From positions 1-17,046 of the IMG/VR virus record IMGVR_UViG_2534682108_000005: a stretch of DNA of 17,046 bases; one strand, written 5' to 3'. Below the pieces are notes generated by a model. The model was not told the DNA's origin. It saw nothing but the letters and a program-made list of their open reading frames with translations, and searched no databases. The stretch comes from a virus (Duplodnaviria; Heunggongvirae; Uroviricota; Caudoviricetes). The translations under genes and the position numbers were made by a program. Positions 4,119 through 12,022 of this stretch are shown in pieces; within the stretch, counting starts at the first letter, position 1, and each line of letters begins with the position of its first letter.

Positions 4119-4176
4119 AAAAAGGGCGGCAGAGCAGTCACGGAGTAAAACTGATACCGCCAAACGTCACCAGAAA
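4119..4176 (-). ncRNA. dicF: DicF small RNA (ftsZ-targeting antisense sRNA of Qin-type prophages) with its intrinsic terminator
   Basis: Minus-strand sequence UUUCUGGUGACGUUUGGCGGUAUCAGUUUUACUCCGUGACUGCUCUGCCGCCCUUUUU matches the DicF sequence as I recall it, including the 3' GC-rich stem and U-run. It sits between the ydfC-like and dicB-like genes as in Qin. Confidence 0.8.
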
Positions 4177-5320: not shown

Positions 5321-5611
5321 TTAACAGGTTTTGTTTGGATACTGTCTTCGTGAGTGAACTACATTTACGATCTCGATGTTAGATGCTGTTACTCGGTAAA
5401 GTATTATATAGTTAGGATGAGTCACTATCTCACGAAGACTTGGAACTCTTTCGCTCGGTGGGTACAGATAAGGGTGTTCAGTAAGTGACAAAACTGATGT
5501 TTCAATGCGTATTTTTAGTCTACGTGCAGCGGGAGGGTTTTCCTTAGCAATATAGGCTACGATCTGACGTAAATCATCACGTGCAGAAGGTAGCCATAAA
5601 ATGGGCAGCAT
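5321..5611 (-). CDS. parE: ParE/RelE-superfamily toxin (96 aa) of a type II toxin-antitoxin module
   Basis: Size, basic C-terminus and overall pattern (...HPNYIILYRVTASNIEIVNVVHSRRQYP) resemble ParE toxins. Its start overlaps the stop of the upstream small gene by 1 nt, the typical antitoxin-toxin arrangement. Confidence 0.7.
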   Translation of the reverse strand: MLPILWLPSARDDLRQIVAYIAKENPPAARRLKIRIETSVLSLTEHPYLYPPSERVPSLREIVTHPNYIILYRVTASNIEIVNVVHSRRQYPNKTC

Positions 5612-5802
5612 TACTCACTCCTGTTCGTTGCAGCTAATTGAGCAATAAGGTTTTCCATTTCAGCCATTACTTCGTCATGTGGAATTGCAGGACGGGGATC
5701 TGAGAGGCTTGCTGCCACTTTGGCTCGCAACCATTCGTTATAGCTGTTTTCTTGTTCGACTGTTTCAAATTCAGAAATTATCGGGGAAAGGGCTGTACTC
5801 AT
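5611..5802 (-). CDS. Antitoxin (63 aa) cognate to the ParE-like toxin; PaaA-like
   Basis: Small acidic protein (MSTALSPIISEFETVEQENSYNEWLRAKVAASLSDPRP...) directly upstream of and coupled to the toxin gene. It resembles, from memory, PaaA-type antitoxins of the three-component paaR-paaA-parE systems of E. coli O157 prophages. Confidence 0.6.
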   Translation of the reverse strand: MSTALSPIISEFETVEQENSYNEWLRAKVAASLSDPRPAIPHDEVMAEMENLIAQLAATNRSE

Positions 5803-9440: not shown

Positions 9441-9857
9441 ATGGCAAGAGTATTTACACCAGAAGAGCGGGAAAAAATTAAGGGGCAGGTTGTTGAACTC
9501 GTACGCCAGAGCGGTCGCGAGACGTTACGGCAACTGGAAGCTAAAACAGGTGCAACAAGATATCTGGTGAGCGTTCTCGCCAGAGAGCTGGTTGCCAGTG
9601 GTGATGTATACAACTCTGTCTACGGGTTATTTCCGTCTGAACAGGCTCGTAAGGACTGGCAAAATGCCCGAAAAAAACTCACTAGGGCAAGGGCGAAGAA
9701 ACCCGCTGTGGTTGATCCGGGCCTTATCTGGTCATTAGATGACGGAGAAATACGTCGCTACGACAGGCGTCATAATATAATTTGTAATGAGTGCCGTAAC
9801 AGTGAAGTGATGCAGAGAGTTTTGATATTTTACACAGGAGTAATGATGGAGCAGTGA
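9441..9857 (+). CDS. Hypothetical phage protein (138 aa) with one winged-helix-like segment and a C-terminal Cys-containing tail
   Basis: AGGGGA SD before the ATG at 9441. The segment VELVRQSGRETLRQLEAKTGATRYLVSVLARELVASGDV resembles the repeats of the preceding gene. The 3' end runs into the AT-rich island. Confidence 0.45.
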   Translation: MARVFTPEEREKIKGQVVELVRQSGRETLRQLEAKTGATRYLVSVLARELVASGDVYNSVYGLFPSEQARKDWQNARKKLTRARAKKPAVVDPGLIWSLDDGEIRRYDRRHNIICNECRNSEVMQRVLIFYTGVMMEQ

Positions 9858-10221
9858 AAACAATATGAAATCTTTAGCTTCTGGTATTGTAACAGATGGG
9901 AAAAGTGTAGATATATGGAAATTGCATAGCAATAATTCGCAGCATGGATGCTATTCGTATGTTGATAAAGTGGTCCCAGTATGCGAGTGTAAGAGTTGAA
10001 CCAGTTCCAACTAAGAAATTGGGGGGATAATATAGAAGGTGGCTAAGTGAATGTGCTTATGATTATCTGAAAAACAAATGGAATGTTTTAATGGGTCTAA
10101 GAACACAGCAATGCACAAATTAGGGGTTATCTTTTACTGTGCTTATTAATATGCTCAATGACCCATTAGGATTGGTGTCAGTTATGTTAGCCAGAGTGAT
10201 AAAGTGATTATATCTCTGCTG

Positions 10222-10995
10222 TTATATGCTGAAATGAGTAATACTATTCCAGAGTGCAGCAGCGAAAGTCTCCTGATGATTGAGTTCTGGAAATTGTACG
10301 ACAGAAAAATTACTATATTTTTCTGCTAAAATATTTTTCAAAACAGATTCTGCTTTAATGGCTTCAGGATATAAAGATGTGGAGTAATCAAGGCTAAGAT
10401 CTCCGCTAAGTAAGCATATACTTTTAGTATGCTTTGATTCTGGCATGTCATTTTTTATGATCTTGATGATTCTTTCATCCTGCCATAGAAGTGATGGTGC
10501 TGAGATATAATAATAGTTAAAACATGAATTATTTTTTAAACAATCAAGAACAAAAATAGCACCTAGTGAGTGTCCCCATATACCGAGTTTTGAGGATGTC
10601 GGAACAATGGTGCTGACCCAGGGCATGATCTGAGTTAGCAATAATTCTCGGAAACTCTGACTTCCTCCACCAGTGAAGTAGATCCATGCTGGTTTGGAGT
10701 TATCAATAATAGCATTTTCACCACCAGGAGTGTAATCGTAAGCACGGCGGTGAATATTAAGCTTATCCAAAGATTCGTAACTCAGTGTAACTAACACTGG
10801 TGGATTGGGTAGTGCATCAATAACAGGAAGAATATCAGAAATGTTATTGTTGGCGCTATTTCCATCAAGTATATAAAGAGTTGTATTATTTTTTTTAATG
10901 TTTTTTGGAGTAAAAACGCATATTTTATATTTTGTGTCATAGTTAATTGAGTTAAATATGCGTGTTTGACAATGAATGTCCATGTGTTTAGTCAT
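10222..10995 (-). CDS. Alpha/beta-hydrolase serine esterase (257 aa) in an AT-rich island; cargo gene on the opposite strand
   Basis: GHSLG nucleophile-elbow motif (G-x-S-x-G) in LGIWGHSLGAIFVLDCL, consistent with the esterase D/Fes-like fold. No signal peptide seen. GGGGAG SD upstream. Markedly lower GC than flanking phage genes. Confidence 0.7.
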   Translation of the reverse strand: MTKHMDIHCQTRIFNSINYDTKYKICVFTPKNIKKNNTTLYILDGNSANNNISDILPVIDALPNPPVLVTLSYESLDKLNIHRRAYDYTPGGENAIIDNSKPAWIYFTGGGSQSFRELLLTQIMPWVSTIVPTSSKLGIWGHSLGAIFVLDCLKNNSCFNYYYISAPSLLWQDERIIKIIKNDMPESKHTKSICLLSGDLSLDYSTSLYPEAIKAESVLKNILAEKYSNFSVVQFPELNHQETFAAALWNSITHFSI

Positions 10996-11102
10996 ACGTT
11001 CTCCCCATGAGCATTAAAGGATTATTAAGATATGCTATGTCACTGATGAACAATTTGTTGTATGAATCTAGGTTTTTTATCTACCTCCATTATGATTTAA
11101 TC

Positions 11103-11121
11103 GCTGATATATGTTATCAGC
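11103..11121. promoter_or_regulatory. Inverted repeat GCTGATA-n5-TATCAGC in the promoter region of the esterase gene
   Basis: 7-bp perfect inverted arms separated by 5 bp, about 110 bp upstream of the esterase start, next to a candidate -10 (CATAAT on the minus strand). Confidence 0.4.
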
Positions 11122-11699
11122 AAAGGTACATCGTTACTGTTTTACTTGTCAATACATTTGATATTGATTCTCGTTCGCATCGTTTGTTCAGGGATTTGAA
11201 GACAGATAACTGCTATGTCAATGAACCAACCCACAGTCCAACGTACTTCAGCAAAATATGGCGTCGGGATATAGCACCCTGATATTCACCACGGCAAACA
11301 CACGCCGAGAGTGTTTTTTTATCGTCGTATGTACGTGCACATCTGAATAATGGCAGGCGAATGTGATAGCCGAAAAGCTCACCGTGCGGTGATCCGGTAG
11401 TTTCACCCTGTACGTCTCATAACCCGATGATTGAGACCTTAAGCAAAACAATAACAAGGGAGCGTCATTATGACCACTCAAACTGATTTCATATTGGCGA
11501 TGTAATGGGAAGTTAAGTAGAATGGCAGCGGGTGCTTGAGGCTATCTGTCTCAGGCATGAACACCAAAAGGCAGATAGAGAAAAGCCCCAGTTAACATTG
11601 CGCGTCCGGCAAGACGCTTAACATTAATCTGAGGCCATATCTATGCTCTACACACGTAGGTTAGCCTCTTACGTGCCGAAAGGCAAGGAGAAGCAGGCT

Positions 11700-11855
11700 A
11701 TGAAGCAGCAAAAGGCGATGCTAATCGCCCTGATCGTCATCTGTTTAACCGTCATTGTGACGGCACTGGTAACGAGGAAAGACCTCTGCGAGGTATGAAT
11801 CCGAACCGGCCAGACGGAGGTCGCTGTCTTCACAGTCTACGAACCTGAGGAGTAA
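11700..11855 (+). pseudogene. hokD: hok/gef-family type I toxin gene (HokD/RelF-like) interrupted by an in-frame TGA at codon 33
   Basis: Translation MKQQKAMLIALIVICLTVIVTALVTRKDLCEV, then TGA at 11796-11798, then in frame IRTGQTEVAVFTVYEPEE and TAA at 11853-11855. This matches HokD as I recall it, with the stop where Arg is expected. AGGAG SD 9 nt upstream. Structured leader (CTATCTG...CAGATAG) upstream and a 3' stem-loop at 11862-11884. Confidence 0.7.
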
Positions 11856-11923
11856 GAGACCAGGCGGGGGAGAAATCTCCCGCCACCTCTGATGTGTCAG
11901 GCATCCTCAACGCACCCGCGCTT

Positions 11924-11950
11924 AACCCGCTTCGTCGGGTTTTGTTTTTT
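11924..11950 (+). terminator. Rho-independent terminator downstream of the hok locus
   Basis: Stem AACCCG, 6-nt loop, stem CGGGTT, followed by TTTTGTTTTTT. Confidence 0.6.
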
Positions 11951-12022
11951 CCTGGCATTCTGGTTTACAATTCGCACGTCAGCCTGAACAACTGGCACCT
12001 GCTGCGCCAGCAGAGACAACCG

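Follow-up and report, generated by a model that had tools for sequence, protein, structure and literature searches.

A Premature Stop Codon in a Prophage hokD-Type hok/Sok Locus of Escherichia coli: a Probable Recent Loss of Toxin Function

Overview of the locus

The window, by which we mean the whole 17,046-nt stretch of viral DNA analyzed here, contains a prophage hok/Sok locus whose toxin reading frame is closed early by one base change. This locus is very probably a recent loss-of-function allele in which the RNA elements have not had time to decay. In such an allele, a single C-to-T transition at codon 33, turning CGA into TGA, would knock out the toxin, and the hok mRNA would probably still be transcribed from its own promoter, locked by the tac/fbi pairing of its 5' and 3' ends, and targeted by a Sok-like antisense RNA. 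Whether begun at the hok ATG or at an in-frame mok-like ATG upstream of it, translation would now stop after '...DLCEV'. The intact look of the regulatory RNA elements would be explained by a mutation that is young compared with the divergence of the loci, and not by their preservation for a new purpose.

Truncated hok gene and its stop codon

The coding part of the locus consists of the following features:

11700-11798, + strand: truncated hok ORF, 32 codons and TGA; read as an ORF, matched by Pfam HOK_GEF at 44 bits, and annotated as WP_000813248.1 in NZ_CP062876.1
11796-11798, + strand: premature stop TGA replacing CGA (Arg33), with the mutated base at 11796; identified by comparison with related loci
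11799-11855, + strand: untranslated remnant of the Hok C-terminus, IRTGQTEVAVFTVYEPEE and TAA; from in-frame translation; includes TACG at 11838-11841

The product of the truncated ORF is MKQQKAMLIALIVICLTVIVTALVTRKDLCEV, a peptide of 32 aa closed by the TGA, and the hok frame continues past this codon for 18 C-terminal codons up to the TAA at 11853-11855. The Pfam family HOK_GEF (PF01848) matched the 32-aa peptide over profile positions 1-27 of 42 (44 bits, cutoff 22) and the Arg-repaired product of 51 aa over positions 1-42 of 42 (78.6 bits), the post-stop remnant contributing 34.6 bits. These results bear out the original prediction, made from the sequence alone, that the conserved C-terminus continues in frame after the stop; a downstream sequence that fails to align with Hok C-termini, which would have spoken against it, was not seen. 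A complete peptide of the Hok/Gef family has ~50 aa, with an N-terminal transmembrane helix and a periplasmic C-terminal domain, and the window ORF has 32 residues. As it stands, it is a truncated allele or pseudogene of the Hok/Gef family, with the C-terminal domain encoded beyond the TGA.

The ORF had also been described as encoding a HokD/RelF-like peptide, and the comparison with K-12 HokD agrees: the two proteins match at each of the 32 translated residues and at 17 of 18 post-stop residues, the stop and A46V being the only differences. This near-identity places the gene in the hokD subtype. RefSeq gives the name hokD to near-identical intact loci, and the NCBIfam Hok subfamily and HokA models matched both the truncated and the repaired forms only below their cutoffs.

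To place the stop among related genes, codon 33 was surveyed in 127 hokD-type loci, comprising 116 loci from IMG/VR, 10 loci from E. coli genomes, and the window. CGA occurred in 116 of the 127 loci, CGC in two, and CGG in one, and TGA was present only in the window and in seven genome loci that had been chosen for carrying the allele; none of the 116 IMG/VR loci had TGA. The closest intact relatives of the window, L002 and L003, both have CGA. The proposal that TGA stands where Arg is expected and derives from CGA is therefore well founded.

In the predicted fold of the mRNA, the C-to-T change at 11796 converts a C11796-G11803 pair to U-G and leaves the minimum free energy (MFE) structure identical (ddG +1.7 kcal/mol); an effect of the mutation through disruption of the mRNA structure was thereby ruled out. 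The Tyr-to-Cys editing of hokD by TadA (PMC5630033) takes place at codon 47 (TACG, 11838-11841), which in the window lies beyond the stop and outside the translated part. Codons 46-48 of the window and its closest carriers (GTC TAC GAA, 11835-11843; haplotype A below) give CUACGAA, and the K-12 hokD sequence is UUACGAA. CUACGAA is also the sequence of the anticodon loop (7 nt) in tRNA-Arg(ACG), on which TadA naturally acts.

RNA architecture of the locus

The whole hok/Sok RNA apparatus spans 11494-11951, from the start of the promoter to the end of the terminator:

11494-11523, + strand: putative hok mRNA promoter, -35 TTGGCG (11494-11499), 18-nt spacer, -10 TAGAAT (11518-11523); from a consensus scan
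11530-11951, + strand: predicted full-length hok (mok-hok) mRNA, ~422 nt; 5' end from the start of the RF01794 match and 3' end from the terminator
11530-11541, + strand: tac-like 5' element, GGGUGCUUGAGG; MFE pairing with the fbi-like element, inverted repeats I1 and I3
11578-11651, - strand: Sok-like antisense RNA, ~70 nt, antisense to the mok Shine-Dalgarno (SD)/start region and inside the RF01794 match; ends placed after R1 Sok
11586-11589, + strand: ucb-like anti-SD, CCCC; in the predicted fold C11586, C11587, and C11589 pair with G11634, G11633, and G11631
11631-11645, + strand: mok-like translation start, SD GAGG (11631-11634) and ATG (11643-11645), 57 nt 5' of the hok ATG
11658-11686, - strand: putative Sok promoter, -35 TTGCCT (11686-11681), 17-nt spacer, -10 TAACCT (11663-11658); read by eye
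11687-11690, + strand: hok SD, GGAG; read from the sequence
11863-11884, + strand: 3' stem-loop, the would-be protective end of the processed mRNA; inverted repeat I4, present in the MFE structure
11905-11917, + strand: fbi-like 3' element, CCUCAACGCACCC; MFE pairing with the tac-like element, inverted repeats, and comparison with relatives
11924-11951, + strand: intrinsic terminator, a stem-loop (11924-11941) followed by a T-run

The leader was matched by the Rfam model RF01794 ('sok', a covariance model in the hok-leader sense) at 11530-11705 on the + strand, with 116.4 bits (gathering score 59) over model positions 1-157 of 157, and the promoter-like site ends 6 nt 5' of the start of this match. 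The transcript 11530-11951 has an MFE of -165 kcal/mol (z = -5.2 against shuffles), and in the full-length fold the CCCC at 11586-11589 is predicted to sequester the mok SD. The pairing of the tac-like and fbi-like elements is preserved in 89-94 of 94 distinct related sequences; it draws no covariation support from these 94 relatives because the pairs hardly vary and offer no compensatory changes. Compensatory changes were found among relatives in the 5' hairpin and in the 3' stem-loop (alignment columns 344-348 with 360-364). The Sok-like RNA folds at -28.6 kcal/mol into one long hairpin with an unpaired 5' tail and a U-rich 3' end. Its putative promoter scored under the threshold of the consensus scan and is a block conserved across 94 related loci, reading TTGACC / TAATCT in haplotype B.

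Taken together, the RF01794 match, the tac/fbi pairing, the I4 stem-loop, and the terminator uphold the earlier view that the leader inverted repeats and the 3' stem-loop are intact. The locus had been delimited as 11520-11890; it is real, and this interval is too short, as the promoter begins at 11494 and the fbi-like element and terminator extend to 11951.

The ORF from the mok-like ATG (11643-11798) shares the frame of hok. Among the 127 hokD-type loci, 101 have the mok-like start (GAGG-N8-ATG) 57 nt before the hok ATG, a spacing that puts the upstream ORF in frame with hok as an N-terminal extension of 19 aa (70 aa in total when intact); this in-frame mok-hok arrangement is typical of the hokD-type subfamily. 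The spacing is 56 nt in 17 loci (haplotype B), where a 19-codon upstream ORF ends in a TGA overlapping the hok ATG (ATGA), and 58 nt in three of the 127.

Distribution of the stop allele

The earlier analysis had advised looking for the TGA in other isolates. The exact 61-nt context of the stop was found in seven of 5,426 complete E. coli genomes (seven of the 4,688 complete genomes with matching hok loci) and in draft genomes, on two haplotypes. The hok loci per matching E. coli genome had a median of two and numbered up to 10. All seven complete-genome carriers, which came from pigs and humans in Canada, China, Japan, Sweden, and Malaysia, are annotated with WP_000813248.1, a 'Hok/Gef family protein' of 32 aa. 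The R33* allele is thus already catalogued in RefSeq under this accession; we found no paper discussing it, nor any other catalogue entry.

A large protein collection lists the 32-aa product for 582 contigs, at least one of which (L140) is a contig-end fragment. A genuine TGA was present in nine of 10 inspected contig occurrences, the remaining one being the contig-end fragment, and many short 'partial' members of the cluster are probably fragments of the same kind. Another hokD nonsense allele, Q38* (CAG to TAG), is carried by the IMG/VR locus L039, a single viral contig. A 37-aa cluster member (P0003) had suggested Q38* as a second common nonsense allele; this was ruled out, as a 70-nt query with the CAG-to-TAG change had no exact match in the 5,426 complete E. 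coli genomes.

Two haplotypes and the age of the mutation

Two haplotypes, with 24 differences over ~430 positions, account for the carriers of the stop. Haplotype A includes the window, NZ_CP062876, CP180600, CP101800, and the draft GCA_052948375.1, and has an esterase island upstream, Val at residue 46, and the 57-nt spacing between the upstream ATG and that of hok. Haplotype B includes TUM9803, TUM10008, EC24, CH4796, ESBLEC_HM24, and others, and has DUF7167 upstream, Ala at residue 46, and the 56-nt spacing; it often lies in deleted Rac-site remnants beside trkG.

Each carrier haplotype has a nearly identical CGA sibling. The window differs from its closest intact locus, L002 (NZ_AP027829), at 3 of 430 nt, the stop included, and its leader is identical to the leader of that locus; against the intact NZ_CM139231 there are four differences in 430 nt, again including the stop. 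Haplotype B (L005-L009) differs from the intact IMG/VR loci L012, L079, and L080 at 1 of 430 nt, which is the stop itself.

Around the stop, an invariant tract of ~79 nt (11757-11835) is common to both haplotypes. The presence of the allele on two backgrounds reflects either the same C-to-T transition occurring twice or a converted tract of at most ~79 nt; hok loci are visibly mosaic (e.g., L047 and L014). The loci of TUM10008 (L006) and EC24 (L007) lie in Rac-site prophage remnants beside trkG that have differing internal deletions and an IS1 insertion, indicating that the stop allele predates further decay of these prophages.

Functional interpretation

The loss of function is suggested by experiments on related toxins. 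In a FASTBAC-Seq analysis of R1 hok, 18 of 20 possible one-step stop codons were recovered as suppressors of toxicity, and C-terminal extensions also abolished toxicity (PMC9841398). Toxicity was likewise absent from a truncated Hok R1 control (bioRxiv 10.1101/2025.08.07.668861) and, as cited in PMC8509063, from HokC with PhoA in place of its C-terminus. As the stop in the window removes the whole periplasmic C-terminal domain, the 32-aa product is most likely non-toxic, judging from these experiments on R1 Hok and HokC. Because stops in R1 hok were recovered as loss-of-toxicity mutations, a recent loss-of-function allele is the most likely reading of the locus. The original prediction had left two alternatives, a recently inactivated toxin or a truncated 32-aa membrane peptide; the former is the better supported, given the few differences from intact siblings (3/430 and 1/430 nt) and the effect of stops in R1 hok (PMC9841398).

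Some observations run against a complete loss. Mutagenesis of HokC assigned part of the toxicity to the transmembrane region as well (PMC8509063), so that a peptide consisting of this region could keep some membrane activity. That the same stop recurs on two haplotypes differing at 24 of ~430 positions might point to selection and not to neutral decay. Of the stop codons in E. coli, UGA leaks the most, which makes a trace of full-length product possible.

If the 32-aa peptide (transmembrane helix and TRKDLCEV) were made and had a function of its own, with the same stop selected twice, it might act as a mild membrane-active peptide or as a dominant-negative partner tempering other Hok copies. 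The peptide is translatable, since no damage is seen in the putative promoter, the mok-like start, the hok SD, or the predicted mRNA fold; the allele persists on two haplotypes in isolates of several countries, E. coli genomes have a median of two and up to 10 matching hok loci, and the contribution of the transmembrane region to HokC toxicity (PMC8509063) is in keeping with membrane activity. We nevertheless consider this unlikely, as the allele is rare (seven of 4,688 matching complete genomes and none of 116 IMG/VR loci), stops across R1 hok cause loss of function (PMC9841398), and the mosaic structure of the loci allows recombination or recurrent C-to-T transition to explain the two backgrounds without selection. 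Moreover, the carrier prophages are decaying: in NZ_CP062876.1 the integrase is truncated beside IS66, and the carriers of haplotype B lie in variously deleted Rac-site remnants. More specifically, it is very doubtful that Arg33-to-stop arose independently on the two haplotypes because a transmembrane-only fragment is advantageous, for example as a dominant-negative modulator, under Sok control, of intact Hok copies from other prophages in the same cell.

It is also quite improbable that the locus encodes an attenuated toxin, in which occasional read-through of the UGA, e.g., by tRNA-Trp, would give a little full-length Hok(R33W). Read-through of UGA is known in E. coli, and the downstream frame is fully intact to its normal TAA, as would be expected anyway after a recent mutation. 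No recoding signal was seen at the UGA of the window, and a prophage-encoded opal suppressor was ruled out, because the three prophage tRNAs have the anticodons CAT, TCG, and TCT. That the stop is a sequencing or assembly error in a truly intact gene is barely conceivable: only one base separates it from the codon of the nearest relatives, but the identical allele occurs in at least 12 independent assemblies, including seven complete RefSeq genomes, and on two haplotypes, a recurrence that effectively rules out a read or assembly artefact.

Comparison with known hok systems

The K-12 hokD gene (relF) of the cryptic prophage Qin is the closest named counterpart: the repaired product of the window differs from it only by A46V, and that of haplotype B is identical. 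The two loci share the hok SD, the 3' stem-loop, an fbi-like element, and the terminator, as well as the downstream neighbourhood, in which a rem-like ORF is followed by ydfU/DUF968. Their homology runs only from the hok SD through the terminator, with relE lying upstream in K-12. In K-12 the coding sequence is intact and the whole leader (promoter, tac, mok start, and Sok) was lost to the relBE junction, whereas the window shows the reverse, with the leader complete, a Sok-like RNA encoded, and the coding sequence broken. As noted in the original prediction, K-12-type relBE is not adjacent to hok in the window, and the K-12 homology begins only at the hok SD.

The architecture resembles that of R1 hok/Sok (parB), the reference type I toxin-antitoxin system, in the predicted tac/fbi lock, the anti-SD on the mok SD, a mok-like upstream leader ORF, a putative antisense RNA over the mok start, and the 3' stem-loop (PMC9841398), in agreement with the full-length RF01794 match. 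In R1, the mok AUG (nt 116-118) and the hok AUG (nt 174-176) are 58 nt apart (PMC9841398), so that mok is out of frame with hok. In the window, in contrast, the 57-nt spacing makes the upstream ORF an in-frame N-terminal extension of Hok rather than an out-of-frame overlap; the locus also differs from R1 in lying on a prophage, not a plasmid, and in its truncated toxin.

Chromosomal hok loci of K-12 have been reported to be inactive (PMC5630033). As in the inactivated chromosomal loci hokA, hokC, hokE, and similar ones, and in 'degenerated' hok coding sequences, the toxin of the window is apparently disabled and parts of the locus survive; what sets it apart is the cause, one nonsense transition in place of an IS insertion or rearrangement. 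A 2026 survey of Hok found hok to be enriched in prophages and filtered out degenerate hok coding sequences, those with internal stops amounting to 2.6% of unique coding sequences. The locus is thus an ordinary case of a known kind, the decay of prophage or chromosomal hok toxins, and in itself matters little. The stop allele could be used as a natural loss-of-function control in studies of HokD toxicity, and the window provides a clean example of a hokD locus in which the leader and a Sok-like RNA, lost from K-12, are retained. Two small points may interest hok specialists: the same stop on two backgrounds, and a mok-like start in frame with hok.

Prophage context

Over its 17,046 nt, the window has 4 mismatches (99.98% identity) to a section of a lambdoid prophage in E. 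coli O157:H16 Res13-Lact-PEA12-26 (NZ_CP062876.1). According to the annotation of that genome, the genes are, in window order:

start of the prophage: truncated integrase beside an IS66 element, then excisionase and exonuclease
next: ydfD, dicB, DicF, ydfCBA
next: ParE/PaaA2 toxin-antitoxin pair, two HTH regulators, ydaT, replication genes, DUF1627, DUF977
next: AT-rich island with a minus-strand esterase-like ORF, then the hok locus
3' of the hok locus: 92-aa ORF, DUF968 (ydfU-like), RusA, DUF1133, methyltransferase, three tRNAs, STnc100

The type II pair at 5321-5802 (- strand), 6 kb upstream of hok and on the opposite strand, adjoins the prophage HTH regulators and is labelled relB / RelE-ParE family in RefSeq. 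A displaced K-12 relBE was considered for this pair and ruled out, as Pfam identified ParE_toxin and PaaA2 and BLASTP gave no alignment with K-12 RelE.

Three small RNA features were also located. The DicF sRNA lies at 4124-4175 on the - strand (76.7 bits), the tRNA cluster (anticodons CAT, TCG, and TCT, the first called Ile in RefSeq) at 15956-16205 on the + strand, and the STnc100 sRNA downstream of the tRNAs at 16315-16512 on the + strand (134.6 bits). The AT-rich island (9800-11200) has 31-38% GC, compared with ~50-57% in its flanks, and harbors an esterase-like ORF of 257 aa (10222-10995, - strand) directly upstream of hok. The island resembles a moron insertion, and prophages of haplotype B have DUF7167 genes in its place.
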